Below, in pieces: positions 4,876-59,371 of a stretch of 64,000 nt of DNA (the first letter of the stretch is position 1; every line of letters begins with the position of its first letter). The position numbers and the translations under genes were made by a program. Source of the stretch: an uncultured Gemmatimonadaceae bacterium (GTDB lineage Bacteria > Gemmatimonadota > Gemmatimonadetes > Gemmatimonadales > Gemmatimonadaceae); contig CAWGJO010000036.1 in the NCBI GenBank assembly GCA_963822945.1, forward strand, positions 60,897 through 124,896, in the 5' to 3' direction. Under the pieces are notes generated by a model. The model had not been told where the DNA came from. It worked only from the letters and a program-made list of their open reading frames with translations, and ran no database searches.

Positions 4876-5970
4876 ATGACCACCCCCGTCACGCAATTCC
4901 CCTGCCCCCACTGCGGCGCCGACGTCACCTGGGATCCCGCCGCCGGCGCACAACGCTGCACGAACTGCGGCGCCACGATCGCACCGCCGGCCGCCACGTC
5001 GGCCATCCGGGAGCTGGACTACCAGAAGTGGTCGCGCGGTGTATCCGAGGACGGTGATCTCACCGAGCAACTCGTGGTGCACTGCGGCCGGTGCGGCGCC
5101 GAGACGACCTTCGGGCCCAACGTCACGGCGGGACACTGCGCTTTCTGCGGTGCCGCCATCTCGGCGGAGGGCGAATCGAAGAAGCTCATCAAGCCGCAGG
5201 CCCTGCTTCCCTTCCGGGTGCCCCGCACGCGGTCGCTCGAGCTGTTCAGCCAGTGGATCCGGAAGCTCTGGTTCGCGCCGAACGCGCTGAAGCACATGGC
5301 CAAGCCCGACGCGCAGCGGCTGCGCGGCGTCTACCTCCCATTCTGGACCTACGACGCCGACACCACCACCGACTACACCGGCCAGCGCGGCGACGACTAC
5401 ACCACCACCGAGACCTACACGACGCGGGAGAACGGACGCACCGTGACGCGCACGCGCACGGTGACGCACACGCGATGGCGATCGGCGGCTGGACGGGTCT
5501 CCGACCGGTTCGACGACGTGCTGATCCCCGCGGGCGGGGCGATGCCGCGCACCATCGTCGATCGCCTGCAGCCGTGGGATCTGAACGACCTCGTCCCCTT
5601 TGCCGACGGCTACCTGGCCGGCTTCGAGAGCGAGAGCTACCGCATCGACCTCGTGGCCGGGTTCGGCCTCGCCAAGGAAGCCATGCAGCCGACCATCGAC
5701 GCGACGATCCGCGCCGATATCGGCGGCGATCACCAGCGCATCGGCCAGAAAGACACGGCGTACGCGGACGTCACCTTCAAGCACCTACTGCTGCCGATGT
5801 GGGTGTGCTCGTACCGGTTCCGCGACAAGGTCTACCGGTTCGTGGTCAACGCGCGCACCGGCGAGGTGCAGGGCGAGCGCCCGTGGAGCTGGATCAAGAT
5901 CACCCTGGCCGTGCTCGCGGTCGCCGCCGCCTTCGCGCTCGTCGTGTATATCAACAACAACATCCAGTAG
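4876..5970 (+). CDS. Zinc-ribbon-containing protein with C-terminal membrane anchor
   Basis: Four CxxCG motifs; YLPFWTYD and VNARTGEVQGERPWSWIKI motifs; C-terminal TM helix. Confidence 0.8.
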   Translation: MTTPVTQFPCPHCGADVTWDPAAGAQRCTNCGATIAPPAATSAIRELDYQKWSRGVSEDGDLTEQLVVHCGRCGAETTFGPNVTAGHCAFCGAAISAEGESKKLIKPQALLPFRVPRTRSLELFSQWIRKLWFAPNALKHMAKPDAQRLRGVYLPFWTYDADTTTDYTGQRGDDYTTTETYTTRENGRTVTRTRTVTHTRWRSAAGRVSDRFDDVLIPAGGAMPRTIVDRLQPWDLNDLVPFADGYLAGFESESYRIDLVAGFGLAKEAMQPTIDATIRADIGGDHQRIGQKDTAYADVTFKHLLLPMWVCSYRFRDKVYRFVVNARTGEVQGERPWSWIKITLAVLAVAAAFALVVYINNNIQ

Positions 5971-49520: not shown

Positions 49521-49583
49521 CAAACGAAACGCCCGCCGCAGTTTCGCGGCGGGCGTTCGCAGTAGAGCATGCACCCAGCAAGT
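49520..49583 (-). ncRNA. Predicted anti-tRNA small RNA, module 1
   Basis: Starts ACTTGCTGGGTGC (49583-49571), perfectly complementary to the anticodon arm of tRNA 49634-49717. Ends in a terminator (stem 49528-49539 / 49546-49557, then a T-rich tail). Confidence 0.75.
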
Positions 49584-49589
49584 ACTTGG

Positions 49590-49618
49590 AGAGTATCGCG
49601 TCCACGGTGCCGAGTCAA
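49590..49618 (-). promoter_or_regulatory. Sigma70-like promoter TTGACT-N17-TACTCT for anti-tRNA 1
   Basis: Same -35, spacing and 6-nt distance to the antisense start in all four modules. Confidence 0.75.
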
Positions 49619-49633
49619 TGACTTTGGCGGCCG

Positions 49634-49717
49634 TGCCCGGAGCGGGATTTGAACCCGCACGCCCTTTCGGGCACACACTTGCTGGGTGCGCGTGTCTACC
49701 ATTTCCACCATCCGGGC
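49634..49717 (-). tRNA. Leu-type (class II) tRNA body with AGC (Ala) anticodon and C33; no encoded CCA
   Basis: GCCCGGA-TG-GTGG AAATGGTAG ACAC-G-CGCAC CCAGCAA GTGTG-TGCCCGAAAGGGCGT-GCGGG TTCAAAT CCCGC-TCCGGGC-A. Confidence 0.88.
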
Positions 49718-49983
49718 ACGTGAACGAGGATGGCGGAAGAGGGTCGACCACCCGGCAAGTCACTCCTCGCTACCCGGCGGAACCTTACCGCGTAAGAGGA
49801 GTGACATCGTCGCCGTAAGAACCCCAGGGGGAGCAGAATGTCGCATTCCACTCCACCGCGACCTCAAGGCCCGGCGGAGTGGTGCGGGTAGAAGATGAAA
49901 CTGACTCCGAGGCCGATCAATCCGCCGGCAGTTGCGCCCACGGCGATGGTGAACGGCACGACGAATGCAATCCGGCTCGGCAT

Positions 49984-50523
49984 TCAGCCGAAGATCTCGC
50001 GCACCGCGATCGTCAGCGCTTCGCGTGCGCCCGCCGGGTGCCACACCACCGCGTCGTCCACCGTCCGGTCCTCGTGGCCCGGCCGCACCACGGTGACGGC
50101 CTCGCGTTCCGGATCCACGATCCAGTATTCCGGAACTGCCTGCGCCAGGTAGAAGTCGCGCTTGTGCTGGCGATCGCGACGTCGGGTGGACGGAGACAGC
50201 ACTTCGACGATCAGGCTGGGGAGCGGCATGTCGCTCCATTCCGTGCCCTTCTGTGGCGGAGGCCGGCGCACCATCAGGTCGGGCTCCACCTCGGACCCGG
50301 CAATCCGCAGCACCGCGCGCGGATGGTAGACGAAGCCGAGCCCCTGGGCGGCGACGAACGGTTCGAGCAGTCGAGTGAGCCGGGCGAGAACCGTCTCGTG
50401 ATCCACGTTCGGCGGCGGCGTCACGAACAGTTCGCCGTCGATGAGCTCGTACTTGTTGCCGTCGTCCGGCAGGCTGTGGAGCTCCTCGAGCGTCCACTGT
50501 TTGGTGGTTGGCGCCATCGGCAT
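49984..50523 (-). CDS. Uma2-family (PD-(D/E)XK) endonuclease-like protein
   Basis: YELIDGEL, VEPDL, VEVLSPST...D...K..FY and VPEYWIVDP motifs. Confidence 0.92.
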   Translation of the reverse strand: MPMAPTTKQWTLEELHSLPDDGNKYELIDGELFVTPPPNVDHETVLARLTRLLEPFVAAQGLGFVYHPRAVLRIAGSEVEPDLMVRRPPPQKGTEWSDMPLPSLIVEVLSPSTRRRDRQHKRDFYLAQAVPEYWIVDPEREAVTVVRPGHEDRTVDDAVVWHPAGAREALTIAVREIFG

Positions 50524-50723
50524 GGCCGGTCCTTCCTCGGCAAAGGGTGTCTCGCGAGCATGCGCCGAGCATACACGCCGCGAGCGGAACGCCCTCACCG
50601 TTGTGTTGCGCTCCGCGTCATCCCGTCGCATCGCGGGAGACAGCCGAGCATATGCTCGGCTAGGCGGCCGAGTCAATGGGAAGGCGCTGCGGTGCCGTGT
50701 CCGGAGCGGATCGAACCCACCCC

Positions 50724-53700
50724 CTACGGCTGGATCGCCACCTCCACCCCCTGCGCCTTGAGCCGCGCGTTGAACGCGGGCACGGTCTTGCTCGTGAACT
50801 CATCGAGCGACTTCCGCGACGACGCCATCCACGTCTTGAAATAGTCGTTGACCGCGACCTCGCCGGCCGTGGGTCCCAGGTCGGCCTCGTCCTTGTCGTA
50901 GAGCGCGGTCAGCTTCTGGTAGAGCTGGCTGGGAAAGCGGTTCAGATCCTCGTTGCCGTCGGTGAGATGCACGTCGATCAGCTTGCCCTCGATGGCGATG
51001 GCCTCGTCGGCCAGCTTGCGCGACTCGGCCACCACGCCGCGGTGCGCCGCGTCGCCGCGGTAGCGCATGCTCGAGGTCGGCGAGCTGCTTCCGCACCCAC
51101 TCCAGCTGCTCGATCATGTTCGACACGCTGTCGATCTCGCGCTCCAGCCCCAGCTTGAACTGCAGCTGCGCCCGCATGCTGGCCGCGGTGCCGAGCGACG
51201 CAGGGTCGGCCAGCACCCGGAGCGGCTGCGACTCGGTCGCGCCGCCGGCGTCGAGCTTCACCGTGTAACTGCCGGGCGTCACGCGGGGACCGGTCACGGT
51301 GCCGGGAATCATGATGCCGGTGAGGATGTGGTAGCCCCCGGGACCGTTGGGCACCCAGGGCGCGTCGGGGGGCGGCACCAGCATGTGCGGCATGGCGCCG
51401 TTGGGATAGCGCAGGTCCCACCACGCGCGGTTGAGCCCCTCCGCGCCGCGCACGTGCAACGTGTTGATGGTCCTGCCGTCGGCACCGGCGATGGTGATGG
51501 TGGCCGGGCCGGCGTGCGCGAGATAGAAGTTGATGTCGGCGCCGTACGGCGGGTCCTGCCCCACCACGCGCGCGCCGGGCTCGGCGAGCCGCCGGTCGCT
51601 CTTCTGCCGGAAGCGGTACGCCGCCCGCAGCGGGATAGAGCGCCGCCGCCTTCGCGCCGGGGTCGTAGTGCCGCAGGGCGGTGATGTCGTCCATGATCCA
51701 GTCGCCGCGCCCGTAGGTGGCGATCACCAGATCGTTGAAGCGCGGCTGGACGGTGATCCAGTAGACCGGCGCCGGTGGCAGGTTCTGGTTGAGCTTTGTC
51801 CAGTTGCCGCCGTCGTTCCAGCTCACGTATATCGCGTTGTCGGTGCCCAGGTAGAGCATCCCCTTGCGCACGGGATCTTCGACGATGCAGTGCGCCGAGC
51901 TGTTGTACCCCTTGGGCACGCCCGCGCTGATCATCGTCCAACTCCGGCCGTAGTCGGCGGTCTTGTAGACGTAGGCGTCGTAGTCGCCCATCTGCTCCAG
52001 GTTCACCGTGATGTAGGCGGTGCCGGCGTCGAAGGGCGACGGATCGATGTTCCAGATCGTGCCCATGGGCTTGAGGTCCGGGAATGTTCTTCGTGACGTT
52101 GGTCCAGTGCGCGCCGCCGTCGCGGGTGAGGCTCACCTGCCCGTCGTTGGTGCCCGCCCAGATGACGCCCTGCTTCACCGGCGACTCGGCGATGGAGAAG
52201 ATCAGTGCCGCGTCGTAGGTGTAGAGGTTGTCGTGCGTGATGCCGCCGGAGTTCCCCTCGTGCGCCTTGTCGTCGAGCGTGAGGTCGGGGCTGATCGTCT
52301 TCCAGCTCTGCCCGCCGTCGGTGGTCTCGTGCACGTACTGGCTGCCCACGTACACGCGGTTGTGGTCGAAGGGGGAGATGGCGAGCGGGATCGTCCAGTC
52401 CCACCGGTACTTCACGTCGCGCGGCGCCCAGCCATCGTCCACGTCGGGCCACACGCTCACGTCGCGCGCCTGCCCGTCCTTCATGTTCATGCGGCTGATC
52501 ACACCCTCGTAGCACCCCGACCAGACGATGTCGGGATCGGTGGGGTCGGGCGTCGCGAACCCGCTCTCGCACCCGCCCACCGCCTTGAAGTCGCCGGCGG
52601 TGATGCCGCCGCCAAAGCCGCCGCGCCCCGCGAGGTTGTTGCTGGGACCCACGAAACTCGACGCGTCCTGCAGGTTGCCGTAGATGTCGTAGGGAATCCG
52701 GTCGTCGGTGCTGACGTGATAGACCTGCGCGATGGGCAGCCGGATGTGCTCGAAGGTGCGGCTGCCGTCGAGACTCACCGAGAGCCCGGCGTCGTTGGCC
52801 ACGAGAATGCGGTTCGCATTGTCGGGATCGATCCAGATGTCGTGGTTGTCGCCGCCGGCGGAGCCGAAGCCGTTCCCTCGGCCGGGGCGCAGGAAGGTCT
52901 TGCCGCCGTCGAGCGAGATGGTGTAGTTAGGGCTCACGAAGTACAGGCGGTCGGGATCCGTGGTGGAGACGCCGAAGTTCGTGTAGTACGAGTCGCGCTG
53001 CAGCATCATGTGGTCGTGGCTGACCATCGTCCAACTGGCGCCCGCGTCGTCGGAGCGGTAGAGCGTGGGCTGGCTGTCCTGCACCAGGGCGTACCAGCGC
53101 GTGGGGAGGCTGTGCGCGATGGCGACCGCGACCTTGCCCACCACGTGCGGGGCCGCGGGCAGCCCGTGCCCCGAGAGCTGCGTCCACGTGTCGCCGCCGT
53201 CGCGGCTCACGTACATGCCGCCGTCGGGCCCGCCGCTGTCGAGATTCCAGGGATACACGCGCACCTGCCACATGCCGGCGAACAGCGTGTTGGGGTCGGC
53301 CGGGTCCATGGCCAGGTCGTTGCAGCCGGTGTCGCCGTTGGGGCCGAGCACCAGCTTCCACGTCTTGCCGCCGTCGAGCGTGCGGTAGACGCCGCGCTCG
53401 GGCTGTGCCTTGAAGAGCTGGCCCAGCGCGCAGACGAACACGCGCTGCGGGTCGTGCGGGTCGATCACGATGTGGCCGATGTGGCCGGTGGCGTCGAGGC
53501 CCATGTGCTCCCAGTGCTCGCCGCCGTCCATGGACTTGTAGACGCCGTCGCCCATGGGATAGTAGGGACGGATGAGCCAGGTCTCGCCCGTGCCGGCCCA
53601 CACCACGTTGGGGCTGGACTGCGACACCGCGAGCGCGCCCACGGCCGAGACGTCTTCGTGATCGAACACGGGCCGCCAGTCGACGCCGCCGTTCTCGGTT

Positions 53701-53966
53701 TTCCAGATGCCGCCCGAGGCGGCGCCGACGTACATCACGGCCGGGTCGCCCGCCACGCCCGCCGCCGCGGCAGCGCGGTTGCCGTACGGGCCCACGAAGC
53801 GCCAGCTCATCTCACCGAGCGGTCCGAGTGACGCGGCGGCTGCTCCGCGTCCAATGCCGCGCTGGGCGCGTGCAGGGGCCGGCGCCAGCGCCAGCGATGC
53901 AAGGATGAACGGCGCGAGGACCAGCGCGGTGCCCCTCGACGCGAATCGCGACTGCGGCGTGCTCAT
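50724..53966 (-). CDS. VPS10/sortilin-like BNR-repeat (sialidase-fold) secreted protein; frameshifts near 52075, 51635 and 51068
   Basis: Many S.DGG.TW Asp-box repeats; GAASGGIWKT, DNHDIWID, IATYGRG and GLNRAWWDLRY across frames. Confidence 0.9.
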
Positions 53967-54170
53967 GCGGATGTCTCCTGGATCGGCGCGCGGGCGGGGG
54001 GCCGTGACGACGGTGCCGATGGGAGCGAGGGATGTCAAGGCGGGAGGAGATGATCCGGCCAGCGGGGAATCGGTCCCGGGACTTCAATTCACTGAGCGTA
54101 CGCTTCCCCGCGAGGTAGCGGAGAGCGTCTTGTCAGGCTGTCGATCCAGTTCCGGCACATCTGCGCACGT

Positions 54171-54254
54171 GCCCGGGTGGCGGAACTGGTAGACGCGTGT
54201 GTCTGGTAAGCACATGCTCGCAAGAGCGTGCGGGTTCGAATCCCGCTCCGGGCA
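54171..54254 (+). tRNA. Leu-type tRNA body with GGT (Thr) anticodon; no encoded CCA
   Basis: GCCCGGG-TG-GCGG AACTGGTAG ACGC-G-TGTGT CTGGTAA GCACA-TGCTCGCAAGAGCGT-GCGGG TTCGAAT CCCGC-TCCGGGC-A. Confidence 0.9.
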
Positions 54255-54270
54255 CGGCCTCACCAATCTG

Positions 54271-54300
54271 TTGACTCGGCGAGGCTGGCCGGCTATCAAT
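54271..54300 (+). promoter_or_regulatory. Sigma70-like promoter TTGACT-N17-TATCAA(T) for anti-tRNA 2
   Basis: Same position as in the other modules; weaker -10. Confidence 0.6.
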
Positions 54301-54304
54301 CAGA

Positions 54305-54370
54305 TGCTTGCCAGACACACCAGTTCCGCCAAACCGCCCGCAGCCTTCCTGGCCGCGGGCGGTTTCTCTT
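54305..54370 (+). ncRNA. Predicted anti-tRNA small RNA, module 2 (targets anticodon arm and D-arm)
   Basis: 54305-54320 pairs with 54197-54212 (16 nt, one G.U); 54319-54330 pairs with 54179-54190; terminator stem 54331-54341 / 54355-54365. Confidence 0.75.
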
Positions 54371-54417
54371 CGACGCCCACCTTGCCGCTCGGGCGACCGG
54401 CATCCATAATCGGGGCC

Positions 54418-55998
54418 ATGAATTCCAACATTCGCCACTGGATGCGCCTGCCCTCGGCTTCGCTTGCGATGCTGTTGCTGGCGGCGATGCCGTTGGCCGC
54501 GCAGGGGCGCGGTCGCGGCGGCCCGGGCCCGCAAGGGCACCCCTACGATTCGAGCACCACCGACGCACCGCCGGTGGTCACCCATCATACCATTCAGGTG
54601 GGCGGCAAGACCTACGCCTACACGGCCACGGCGGGACGACTGCCGGTGCCCGATGCGACGGGCAAGACCGAGGCCCACATCTTCTTCGTGGCGTACACGC
54701 TGGACGGGCAGAAGGACGCGAGCCAGCGTCCGCTGTCGTTCATCTACAATGGCGGGCCGGGCGAGCCGGCCATCTGGGTGCACGTGGGCGGGTTCGGTCC
54801 CAAGCGCATCGTACTGCAGAGCAACGGCGCGCTGCCCCCGCCGCCCTACAAGATGGTGGACAACCAGGAGACCTGGCTGCCGTTCACCGACATGGTGTTC
54901 ATCGACCCCGACGGCACCGGCTACAGCCGCGCCGTGTCGGAGAAGGCGCTCTCCGCAACCTCTGGGGTGGCGGGCGACCTGCAGTCGCTGGGCGAGTTCA
55001 TCCGCCTGTACCTCACCAAGTACGATCGGTACAGCTCGCCGCTCTATCTGGCGGGCGAGAGCTACGGCACGTTCCGGTCGGCGGGGCTGGCGGGATACCT
55101 GGCGCAGCGCGGCATCGCGCTGAACGGCGTGATGCTGCTGTCGAGCGTGCTCGACATGCAGACGCTCAGCGAGTCCACCGACAACGACCTGCCGAACGTG
55201 CTGTTCCTGCCCACGTACACGGCCACCGCCTGGTACCACAAAAAGCTGCCGCCCGACCTGCAGAAGCTCTCGCTCAAGGAGGCGGTGGCGCAGTCGGAGC
55301 ACTGGGCGACCACGGAGTACATGCACGACCTCTATGAGGGTGACGCGCTGCAGGGCGCCGAGCGGCAGCAGGCCGTTGCCCAGATGGCGCGCTATACCGG
55401 CCTGCCGGCCAAGCTGATCGACGACTACAACCTGCGCGTCAGCTCGTCGCTGTTCGACGCGACGCTGCTGCAGGGGCAGAAGGAATCCGTCGGGCGGCTG
55501 GACGGCCGCATGGTGAGCTTCAACCGCACGCCCGGCACGCAGCGCAACGACTTCGACCCCAGTTGGGTGCAGCGCCCGGTGTACACGCAGATGTTCACGC
55601 AGTACGTGCGCGACGACCTGGGCTACAAGACCGACGACGTGTACGGGGGCGGCATCGCGGGGTGGAACTTCGACGGCTACGGCAACAACATGAGCCAGTT
55701 GCTGGAGAGCGCCTTCGCCAAGAACCCGTACATGAAGCTGCTGCTGGCCACGGGCTACTACGACTTCGCCTGTCCGTTCTTCGAGGCGGAATACAGCATG
55801 CACCATCTCTTCCTGCCGCCGGATCTCCAGAAGAACATCACGGTGACGCATTACGAGGTGGGGCACATGATCTACCAGGACGACATCGCGCGCAAAGCGC
55901 TGGAGAGCGACGTGCGGACTTCATCGCCAACTCCGATCACGCGAAGGCGATGGATCTCGAGCCGAGATAGAGGAGCCGGGCGAGCCGCTGCTGAATAA
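54418..55998 (+). CDS. Peptidase S10 (paralog of 17005..18558); possible frameshift near 55915 with true stop at 55970
   Basis: YNGGPG, GESYG, GYYDFACP and GHMIY motifs. Confidence 0.92.
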   Translation: MNSNIRHWMRLPSASLAMLLLAAMPLAAQGRGRGGPGPQGHPYDSSTTDAPPVVTHHTIQVGGKTYAYTATAGRLPVPDATGKTEAHIFFVAYTLDGQKDASQRPLSFIYNGGPGEPAIWVHVGGFGPKRIVLQSNGALPPPPYKMVDNQETWLPFTDMVFIDPDGTGYSRAVSEKALSATSGVAGDLQSLGEFIRLYLTKYDRYSSPLYLAGESYGTFRSAGLAGYLAQRGIALNGVMLLSSVLDMQTLSESTDNDLPNVLFLPTYTATAWYHKKLPPDLQKLSLKEAVAQSEHWATTEYMHDLYEGDALQGAERQQAVAQMARYTGLPAKLIDDYNLRVSSSLFDATLLQGQKESVGRLDGRMVSFNRTPGTQRNDFDPSWVQRPVYTQMFTQYVRDDLGYKTDDVYGGGIAGWNFDGYGNNMSQLLESAFAKNPYMKLLLATGYYDFACPFFEAEYSMHHLFLPPDLQKNITVTHYEVGHMIYQDDIARKALESDVRTSSPTPITRRRWISSRDRGAGRAAAE

Positions 55999-56055
55999 GA
56001 GAACGCCCGCCGCGAGAAGCGGCGGGCGTTCGTACTACGGGTGCACCTGGTAAGT
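55994..56055 (-). ncRNA. Predicted anti-tRNA small RNA, module 3
   Basis: Starts ACTTACCAGGTGCAC (56055-56041), a perfect 15-nt complement of the anticodon arm of tRNA 56107-56190; terminator stem 56001-56013 / 56019-56031. Confidence 0.78.
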
Positions 56056-56061
56056 AAATGA

Positions 56062-56090
56062 AGGATACGGCGACCAAGACGCCGAGTCAA
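56062..56090 (-). promoter_or_regulatory. Sigma70-like promoter TTGACT-N17-TATCCT for anti-tRNA 3
   Basis: Read directly; conserved spacing. Confidence 0.78.
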
Positions 56091-56106
56091 CGAATTGATG
56101 AGGCCG

Positions 56107-56190
56107 TGCCCGGAGCGGGATTCGAACCCGCACGCTCTTCCGAGCATGCACTTACCAGGTGCACGTGTCTACCAGTTCCACCATCCGGGC
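56107..56190 (-). tRNA. Leu-type tRNA body with GGT (Thr) anticodon; no encoded CCA
   Basis: GCCCGGA-TG-GTGG AACTGGTAG ACAC-G-TGCAC CTGGTAA GTGCA-TGCTCGGAAGAGCGT-GCGGG TTCGAAT CCCGC-TCCGGGC-A. Confidence 0.9.
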
Positions 56191-56316
56191 ACGTGAACGA
56201 GGATGGTGGAAGCGGCCAGAAGGCGATTCTACTCCGGCCCGAGCGCCACGCCCCGAAGTACCTCGGCGACAGCGCGCCGTGGGCTCACGGGATCATATCC
56301 CGGCCCGGAATGCTCC

Positions 56317-59179: not shown

Positions 59180-59244
59180 CCGAAACCCAGAACGCCCGCC
59201 GCGGTAGGCGGCGGGCGTTCTGGGTTACAGCGCACTCGACAAGT
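59180..59244 (-). ncRNA. Predicted anti-tRNA small RNA, module 4
   Basis: Starts ACTTGTCGAGTGCG (59244-59231), a perfect 14-nt complement of the anticodon arm at 59338-59351; 19-bp terminator stem 59184-59202 / 59208-59226. Confidence 0.75.
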
Positions 59245-59250
59245 AAGAAG

Positions 59251-59279
59251 ACGCTATTTCGAACTCGGCGCCGAGTCAA
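59251..59279 (-). promoter_or_regulatory. Sigma70-like promoter TTGACT-N17-TAGCGT for anti-tRNA 4
   Basis: Read directly; conserved spacing. Confidence 0.75.
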
Positions 59280-59294
59280 GCGGTATGGAGGCCG

Positions 59295-59371
59295 TGCCCG
59301 GAGCGGGAATTGAACCCGCACACTCTTTCGAGCGCGCACTTGTCGAGTGCGTGTGTCGACCAGTTCCAACA
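59295..59371 (-). pseudogene. 5'-damaged Leu-type tRNA with GAC (Val) anticodon and C33
   Basis: TG-TTGG AACTGGTCG ACAC-A-CGCAC TCGACAA GTGCG-CGCTCGAAAGAGTGT-GCGGG TTCAATT CCCGC-TCCGGGC-A. The 5' acceptor strand is replaced by TAACCGC, which includes the addA stop codon. Confidence 0.82.

Follow-up and report, generated by a model that had tools for sequence, protein, structure and literature searches.

Conserved pairing between 5' leaders and their own leucine-type tRNAs in Gemmatimonadaceae

We analyzed a stretch of 64,000 nucleotides (nt) from an uncultured Gemmatimonadaceae bacterium (GenBank assembly GCA_963822945.1, contig CAWGJO010000036.1, positions 60,897 to 124,896 of the forward strand), hereafter the window. 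It contains three tRNA genes, each preceded by a 5' leader that is antisense to the 5' half of the same tRNA and followed by a predicted gene for a small RNA (sRNA) antisense to its anticodon arm; we refer to leader, tRNA, and sRNA gene together as a module. Alignment with relatives shows that the leader:tRNA pairing is conserved through compensatory and G.U-type changes, i.e. that it is a genuine structure maintained by selection. We lean toward the view that these tRNAs are made as auto-inhibited precursors, in which the 5' leader likely pairs with the 5' half of its own tRNA and would delay maturation.

The leaders pair with the 5' half of their own tRNA

A preliminary description of this DNA had proposed that the leaders pair with the D-arm region of the tRNAs they precede, and an inverted-repeat analysis recovered each of these pairings. 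In module 3, the leader arm at 56201-56211 (- strand) is the perfect complement of tRNA nt 5-15 (56176-56186; 11 nt, 100%). The corresponding arm of module 1 (leader positions -21 to -11; 49728-49738, - strand) complements the same tRNA positions (49703-49713) over 11 nt with one G.U pair (91%), and the two strands covary. Module 2 uses another register, i.e. its arm at 54146-54158 (+ strand) pairs at 12 of 13 positions (92%) with tRNA nt 7-19 (54177-54189). We term the arm at -21 to -11 H3 and its pairing with tRNA nt 5-15 the core lock.

A DNA search of 41 related genomes, 20 retrieved stretches, and a junction-pattern scan of genome contigs together gave 31 distinct modules (alignment A2). 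A metagenome scan returned 24 new pattern candidates, from which two false matches in coding regions (L168 and L279 in our numbering) were removed, leaving 22 added modules. Alignment A3 holds 28 modules and A5 holds 50, including the 22 from metagenomes; both leave out the modules without a distal leader (window module 3, L005, and L022). The tallies of genomes given here (41 related, 401 from the phylum) include G022, a genome without a module, on which none of the conclusions depends.

In A2, 92.7% of the cells of the core lock are paired, compared with 31-47% in slid registers. Five of the 11 pairs are changed on both sides, and there are 30 double-change cells compared with 4.2 in shuffles, none of 500 of which reached this number; the modules are related to one another, so this and other shuffle and binomial figures overstate independence. 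When tRNA positions 6 and 11 change, so do the bases that face them in the cloverleaf and in the leader, a three-way covariation that is the signature of two alternative structures. Three core pairs show no unpaired cell in the 50 sequences of A5. Among the non-Watson-Crick cells of A3, 114 are G.U and 22 are A.C, compared with the 58% G.U expected if leader transitions were free. Such an excess of G.U over A.C is expected of an RNA helix formed by the tRNA-sense strand and speaks against a DNA palindrome.

The alignments indicate that in most modules the lock is larger than the core pairing between leader and D-arm. Leader positions -45 to -11 are there antisense to tRNA nt 5-41, anticodon included, in three helices formed by the leader with the anticodon stem-loop (H1), with the D-loop (H2), and through the core arm (H3), which sum to an imperfect duplex of ~29 base pairs (bp). 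In A5, pairing amounts to 93.1% for H3, 85.4% for H2, and 81.3% for H1, with double changes at 11 of the 12 H1 pairs, and A3 agrees. The three helices together hold 101 double-change cells in A5 compared with 42.5 in shuffles (0 of 500 reached the observed number), and slid registers are 32-43% paired. The H1 arm of module 1 (-43 to -32; 49749-49760, - strand) complements the anticodon stem-loop (49677-49688) over 12 nt at 92% and covaries with it. Module 3 has no distal leader (H1); it and L005 keep the short H3 arm only.

The acceptor stem is extended into the leader

The preliminary description also noted that the flanks lengthen the acceptor helix to 10 bp. This is borne out in all three window modules, where C-3 G-2 U-1 face A73 C74 G75. 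In module 1 (- strand), 49718-49720 pair with 49632-49634, and the extended acceptor consists of 49632-49641 and 49711-49720 (10 nt, 100%). In module 2 (+ strand), 54168-54170 pair with 54254-54256, within an acceptor made of 54168-54176 and 54248-54256 (9 nt, 100%, plus a G7.U pair). In module 3 (- strand), 56191-56193 pair with 56105-56107, within 56105-56114 and 56184-56193 (10 nt, 100%). Across the 31 modules, C-3:G75 is present in 30 and both G-2:C74 and U-1:A73 in all. The extension never varies and hence shows conservation and no covariation, its pairing not being separable from another constraint on the CACGT/G motif.

A leader-trailer extension of at least 3 bp occurs in 1 of 46 canonical tRNAs of the same genome (a set that includes one probable false ARAGORN call) compared with 3/3 window modules; of the canonical tRNAs, 35 have no extension, 9 have 1 bp, and one each has 2 bp and 4 bp. 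The statement that none of the three modules encodes CCA is correct, but this is not a special feature. CCA stands at positions 74-76 in only 1 of the 46 genome tRNAs by script, and two end in CCA by eye; because CCA-less genes are the norm in this genome, the missing CCA carries no weight. For Escherichia coli RNase P, at least two pairs between leader and 3' end lower kcat/Km (13-fold for G-2 G-1), because the helix must be unwound (PMC9433436). With 3 bp in 3/3 window modules and in 30-31 of the 31 modules, the extension lies within this inhibitory type and, by analogy with E. coli, would be the kind of pairing that slows RNase P.

The tRNAs have leucine-type bodies and non-leucine anticodons

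ARAGORN called the window tRNA genes at 49633-49717 (- strand, Ala-AGC), 54171-54255 (+ strand, Thr-GGT), and 56106-56190 (- strand, Thr-GGT), and the Rfam tRNA model RF00005 scored them at 46.7-56.5 bits (46.7 for module 1) against a threshold of 29. Their bodies, which we place at 49634-49717, 54171-54254, and 56107-56190, respectively, are 84-nt class II tRNAs with A73 and a long variable arm. Module 1, with anticodon AGC, also has C33 and no CCA.

Over 27 nt at each end, the module tRNAs match tRNA-Leu(CAA) of the same genome at 21-25 positions (5' end) and 24-25 positions (3' end), whereas they match tRNA-Ser at 13-16 and 17-18 positions and tRNA-Tyr at 7-11 and 16-17, respectively. The acceptor, D, and T arms are near-identical to those of the genome's own tRNA-Leu, the differences lying in the anticodon and variable arms. 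In bacteria, tRNA-Leu identity resides in the A73 discriminator together with a class II body, and A73 is found in 31/31 modules. None of the window anticodons (AGC, GGT, GGT) is a leucine anticodon (NAG or YAA), and those of relatives are GGC, CGC, GAC, CAC, GTC, AGG, and GGG, for amino acids including Val, Asp, and Pro. Given their closeness to tRNA-Leu(CAA) and their distance from tRNA-Ser and tRNA-Tyr, the module tRNAs are, by their sequences, leucine-type bodies carrying non-leucine anticodons. We infer that they are charged by leucyl-tRNA synthetase (LeuRS). The assembly (3.97 Mb, 45 contigs, 88% complete) contains one LeuRS gene; no dedicated second LeuRS was found in this 88%-complete assembly, and there is no synthetase gene among the scanned neighbors of the modules.

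The cloverleaf is 99.6% paired across the 31 modules, with double changes at 16 of its 27 pairs and compensatory changes in every stem, indicating maintained, working tRNA folds and not pseudogenes. The acceptor and T stems keep their standard lengths of 7 and 5 bp, the anticodon loop has 7 nt in all modules but one, and A37 is present in 30/30 loops. The exception is the relative L166, whose 8-nt anticodon loop ARAGORN could not assign. In one module, L011/L034 (G010:C4, ~550.4 kb), C8 replaces the universally conserved U8, and the facing leader base is G, so that the lock pair is kept as G-C.

The codons read by these tRNAs are mostly abundant ones. GCC, GCG, GTG, GAC, ACC, and GTC rank 1, 2, 3, 6, 15, and 20 of 61 in the genome itself; 6 of the 8 module anticodons read top-20 codons, and the remaining targets, GCT and CCT, rank 43 and 54. 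A leucine-type body combined with anticodons for abundant codons would probably make the tRNA toxic.

Predicted promoters and antisense sRNA genes

In 26/31 modules, the predicted -10 element is a box resembling TAnnnT, or in some cases CAnnnT, that was picked 63-69 nt ahead of tRNA +1. In module 1 it is TAAGGT (49782-49787, - strand), 64 nt upstream of +1 and without a good -35, and in module 2 it is TACGCT (54099-54104, + strand), 66 nt upstream. For module 3, sequence and alignment point to TAGAAT (56226-56231, - strand), 35 nt upstream of +1, and for L005 to TAAGGT, 25 nt upstream. In all modules with a box, including module 3 and L005, the H3 arm lies downstream of it. Transcription would start at a weak promoter upstream of the leader. 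A conserved ATGACG was considered as a sigma-70 -35 element of the tRNA promoter and rejected, as its distance of 20 nt from the TAnnnT box is too large.

A leader peptide, through which ribosomes would drive unlocking, was also considered, for a conserved GAGGAG followed by TTG resembles a ribosome-binding site. The distance from TTG to the tRNA, modulo 3, is 2, 0, and 1 in 23, 14, and 13 of 50 modules, respectively; in 6/50 the candidate open reading frame (ORF) stops after one codon and in L094 after six, and 20/50 have no TTG. With a non-conserved frame, early stops, and missing TTGs, this reading was rejected.

Downstream of each tRNA, a consensus-like strong promoter and a terminator, both predicted from sequence, delimit an sRNA gene. 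In module 1 (49525-49618, - strand), TTGACT and TACTCT are 17 nt apart, and between them and the terminator lies a seed of 13 nt that matches the anticodon arm in antisense. Module 3 (56001-56090, - strand) is built alike, with 17 nt between TTGACT and TATCCT and an antisense seed of 15 nt for the anticodon arm ahead of its terminator, and module 2 (54271-54375, + strand) has TTGACT, 17 nt, TATCAA, a seed antisense to both anticodon arm and D-arm, and a terminator. The predicted interaction of the sRNA with its own anticodon arm amounts to -28 to -40 kcal/mol for most modules, and the predicted sRNA prefers its own arm over every arm with a different anticodon in 26/31 modules (for module 2, -30.6 kcal/mol compared with -13.4 for others). 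The seed of the module 2-type sRNA (54306-54330, + strand) matches the anticodon arm in antisense and, with the D-loop left out, also the 5' strand of the D-arm, through CCAGTTCCGCC, the same box that is found in the leader; the sRNAs of modules 1 and 3 cover the anticodon arm only. No Rfam family was found for the sRNA or the leader, the best non-tRNA match being ar14 at chance level (23.3 bits compared with 58.8, E 0.5).

Folding predictions for the precursor

The lock dominates predictions for single sequences. With a 58-nt leader, minimum-free-energy (MFE) folds contain at least 8 of the 11 lock pairs in 20/31 modules and the full acceptor stem in 2/31, and the lock-constrained fold is favored over the cloverleaf-constrained one by a mean of -5.4 kcal/mol, in a comparison in which three modules with indels were mis-indexed. 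The co-transcriptional folding prediction that had been suggested as a check agrees for modules 1 and 3, which hold all 11 core lock pairs in the MFE fold from 16 tRNA nt onward; module 2, with its register of 7-19, holds 5 of the 11. Direct-path barriers for refolding from lock to cloverleaf are 33-48 kcal/mol, which are heuristic upper bounds.

The consensus fold computed with RNAalifold is not the lock. It is a cloverleaf with the 10-bp acceptor and a 6-bp helix internal to the leader, GCGAGG : CCUCGU. The claim of a non-cloverleaf precursor therefore stands in part: single-sequence folds predict the lock and the lock covaries, but the consensus prefers the cloverleaf, and the precursor accordingly looks bistable in these models and not simply locked. 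The GCGAGG box lies at leader -53 to -48, near the predicted 5' end, and its CCUCGU partner at -12 to -7 (e.g. 49765-49770 and 49724-49729 on the - strand). This internal helix has one covarying pair (A-U in 19, G-C in 5, U-A in 2) and overlaps the 3' end of H3 by two bases (-12, -11), competing with the last H3 pairs. It may define the unlocked conformer.

Remnant modules, layout, and distribution

A fourth module, a remnant, lies at 59192-59368 (- strand). Its leucine-type tRNA (Val-GAC) has lost the 5' acceptor strand and the leader, which are replaced by unrelated sequence, and GGTAGAC is changed to GGTCGAC. The sRNA gene is intact, with a TTGACT/TAGCGT promoter, a matching antisense seed, and a terminator; on these features the remnant is in effect an orphan 'antitoxin' beside a disabled tRNA. 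A 5'-truncated tRNA next to a retained sRNA gene fits the tRNA being the harmful partner.

A fifth module is reduced to 50647-50718 (- strand), i.e. the last ~25 nt of the tRNA (T arm, 3' strand of the acceptor, ACGGC) and a TTGACTCGGC...TATGCT promoter. The promoter now points into a gene of the Uma2 family (putative endonuclease; 49984-50676, Pfam), and from its position the remnant looks like a re-used sRNA promoter. The TTGACTCGGC...TAnnnT context also occurs, without an obvious tRNA remnant, at two other sites in the same genome (G000, C21:48787-48815 and C26:54527-54556), which may reflect a general strong-promoter consensus of the lineage or further orphan sRNAs.

The modules share one layout. 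A leader ending in ACGT is followed by the leucine-type tRNA (anticodon GGT, GGC, AGC, CGC, GAC, CAC, GTC, AGG, or GGG), by ACG(N)CC, and then by TTGACTCGG, a variable spacer of 17-18 nt, TAnnnT, a stretch antisense to the module's own anticodon arm, and a strong terminator. Of 401 genomes sampled from the phylum, 4 contained the junction pattern, and these belong to one family and two genera. Neighboring genes encode DoxX, Uma2, BNR/sortilin, S10 peptidase, alpha/beta hydrolase, Amt, and AddA-like helicase proteins (Pfam). A conserved protein partner was rejected: none was found beside the modules, nor was a tRNA-dependent transferase among the neighbors, and those neighbors that recur are explained by synteny within the genus. 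Module 2 (54171-54254) has an apparent syntenic counterpart in genome G012 (L002/L031, C9, ~5097-5181), between a BNR-repeat gene and an S10 peptidase gene. The two tRNA bodies are nearly identical, and the anticodon arms differ at ~9 of 19 positions (Thr GGT compared with Asp GTC); in the G012 counterpart, G replaces the conserved T-loop C56.

A model for the precursor and its weight

We picture the pathway as follows. A weak promoter upstream of the leader would produce the precursor, and the leader hairpin would capture tRNA nt 5-15, and often 16-41, as they emerge. Because the acceptor and D stems would then lose their 5' strands to the leader, RNase P would be left without a substrate. 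Molecules that reach the cloverleaf would still carry the 10-bp acceptor helix, and this would have to be unwound before RNase P and 3' trimming could act. LeuRS would charge the mature tRNA with leucine, and the tRNA would miscode abundant Thr, Ala, Val, or Asp codons, so the leader would serve as an in-cis throttle on a probably harmful miscoding tRNA. The mature tRNA would be neutralized in trans by the neighboring sRNA, which has a strong predicted promoter and is complementary to the anticodon arm.

Besides the relatedness of the modules, the invariance of the acceptor extension, the mis-indexed modules, and the cloverleaf consensus described above, several observations weigh against this model. 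The leader duplexes of the window modules have energies of -23.4 to -28.0 kcal/mol and are no clear outliers from the canonical tRNAs (mean -16.7, standard deviation 5.5), and 4 of 45 canonical tRNAs pair at least 8 of positions 5-15 with upstream DNA in MFE folds. Duplex energy was accordingly dropped as a measure of significance by itself, and the case rests on the comparison with relatives because single-sequence energetics give no outlier and some canonical tRNAs pair comparably. With a 28-nt leader, the acceptor is kept in the MFE fold in 7/31 modules; L005, L012, and L038 favor the cloverleaf, and margins are small or reversed in several modules, all by nearest-neighbor energies, which ignore tRNA tertiary structure. 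No -35 element at sigma-70 spacing was found for the predicted tRNA -10 box in the 31 modules.

Other such observations concern the anticodon. For module-2-type leaders, the own anticodon arm ranks 20th of 26 in pairing with the masking arm, and the 45-nt leader of module 2 recurs unchanged in its G012 counterpart although the anticodon arms of the two differ, each being matched by its own sRNA. We therefore rejected the distal arm as a strict anti-anticodon, which is true on average and fails for module-2-type leaders. Module 1 (A34) reads the rare codon GCT (rank 43), and C33 replaces the near-universal U33 in 9 of 30 anticodon loops, module 1 included, suggesting that not every copy need be toxic.

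A wider interpretation, which we put forward tentatively, is that the modules are RNA-only toxin-antitoxin or abortive-infection modules. The toxin would be a tRNA that accepts leucine but reads abundant Ala, Val, Thr, or Asp codons, made as a self-masked 'pro-tRNA' with the leader over D-arm and anticodon, and the antisense sRNA would hold the mature tRNA; decay of the sRNA or a stop in transcription would free the stable tRNA and leucine substitutions would flood the proteome. The switching of anticodon arms among orthologous modules would then reflect diversifying selection on toxin-antitoxin specificity.

Alternative explanations

The leader might instead act after or through cleavage, either because the duplex is a substrate of RNase III or because the leader of ~60 nt, released by RNase P, stays bound as a one-to-one antisense RNA. 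The leader shares its polarity and nearly the same seed with the sRNA (in module 1, ACTTGCCGGGTG compared with ACTTGCTGGGTG in the sRNA), the three helices form an imperfect duplex of ~29 bp, and RNAalifold favors a cloverleaf with the leader free, all of which would suit such a mode of action. With H3 as their only arm, however, module 3 and L005 would form a duplex shorter than those RNase III typically cleaves, and released tRNA leaders are usually short-lived. We regard action through cleavage as unlikely, yet the present comparison does not separate it from the folding lock.

Less probable still is that the tRNA is a carrier of leucine for a non-ribosomal use, with leader and sRNA keeping its anticodon off the ribosome while the anticodon drifts and its antisense partners follow. 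Anticodons that differ between orthologous modules, the C33 found in 9/30 loops, and anticodons for rare codons (GCT, rank 43; CCT, rank 54) could be understood in this way. A drifting anticodon would sit poorly with the 7-nt loop of all modules but one, with A37 in 30/30 loops, and with a narrow anticodon set in which 6/8 read top-20 codons. Moreover, no tRNA-dependent transferase or other conserved protein partner is found beside the modules, and one remnant has lost its tRNA and kept its sRNA, as expected if the tRNA is harmful.

We give little credence to an inverted-repeat operator or promoter element acting at the DNA level, with the leader arm left outside the RNA. In its favor, the TTGYCA of the distal arm is similar to a -35 hexamer, and a symmetric site with one half fixed by constrained tRNA sequence would make the other half change with it. 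A DNA palindrome does not predict the strand-specific bias of 114 G.U over 22 A.C cells, the alignment reveals no -10 at sigma-70 spacing downstream of TTGYCA, and the conserved TAnnnT-like boxes are upstream of the whole leader. That the leader is a functionless, decaying relic of an inverted duplication of the tRNA 5' half is hardly credible, although it reads as a degenerate reverse complement of tRNA nt 5-41 with a 5-nt deletion. Diverged clades maintain the pairing by compensatory changes, three core pairs are never unpaired in 50 copies, the G.U bias argues against neutral decay, and H3 persists even in modules whose distal leader was lost. Both the operator and the relic are thus disfavored by the G.U bias and the compensatory changes.

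Relation to known systems

If the model of an auto-inhibited precursor holds, it adds a form of tRNA control in which the leader of the precursor acts as a built-in antisense inhibitor, and it would be, to our knowledge, the first case of a tRNA as the dangerous partner in an RNA-RNA pair resembling toxin-antitoxin systems. Regulated, genetically encoded bacterial mistranslation would become testable with a module of ~300 nt that needs no protein partner. The masked anticodon and D arms and the extended acceptor stem would also be a natural guide to the design of suppressor or missense tRNAs with conditional activity. Taken as a whole, the module seems to represent a new type of RNA-only system; a full-text literature search, which left most subscription journals and supplements outside its reach, found no description of a tRNA guarded by an antisense leader or sRNA.

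In type I systems (hok/sok and similar), the toxin mRNA is held in an inert long-range fold-back and is countered by a strongly expressed antisense RNA from a neighboring promoter. The modules resemble them in that a potentially harmful transcript would be kept in an inert fold and is partnered with a predicted antisense RNA from an adjacent strong promoter. The type I toxin is a small protein made from a regulated mRNA, whereas here the target of the antisense RNA is a tRNA, i.e. the guarded RNA is not the mRNA of a small membrane peptide and no conserved ORF is present. The masking strand also differs, being a 5' leader antisense to the 5' half of its own tRNA, and activation would probably proceed by processing. 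In type VIII systems (CreTA, SdsR/RyeA), an RNA toxin is paired with an RNA antitoxin. Both partners would likewise be non-coding RNAs here, with an antitoxin that acts by base pairing, but what is presumed toxic is a chargeable tRNA, whose action would lie in miscoding, and the precursor would have an additional lock in cis.

The 3'ETS-leuZ sponge of E. coli is a transcribed spacer of a tRNA precursor that pairs with other sRNAs in trans. It shares with the modules a pre-tRNA spacer with a base-pairing function, whereas the 5' leader described here pairs with the body of its own tRNA.

Among mistranslating tRNAs, allo-tRNAs have an 8/4 or 9/3 geometry of acceptor and T stem, and nematode nev-tRNAs are leucine-type mistranslating tRNAs. 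The natural mistranslating tRNAProA of Streptomyces works with a dedicated ProRSx (PMC10404621, PMC11415595); term searches of these two papers gave no match for antisense or Gemmatimonad. As in tRNAProA, allo-tRNAs, and nev-tRNAs, identity elements and anticodon disagree in the module tRNAs, and a sense codon would be misread. Unlike tRNAProA with its ProRSx, the modules have a leucine-type body and not a proline identity, and no dedicated synthetase was found; unlike allo-tRNAs, they keep the standard 7/5 cloverleaf. They differ from known mistranslating tRNAs, as far as the term searches of the two papers show, in that each carries predicted, co-varying antisense RNAs in cis and in trans.

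Finally, as in the E. coli pre-tRNAs described in PMC9433436, at least two pairs continue the acceptor helix across the cleavage site. The modules differ from those pre-tRNAs in having three such pairs including U-1:A73, with genomic C74 G75 instead of RCCA, and in combining the extension with a much longer duplex between leader and tRNA body.

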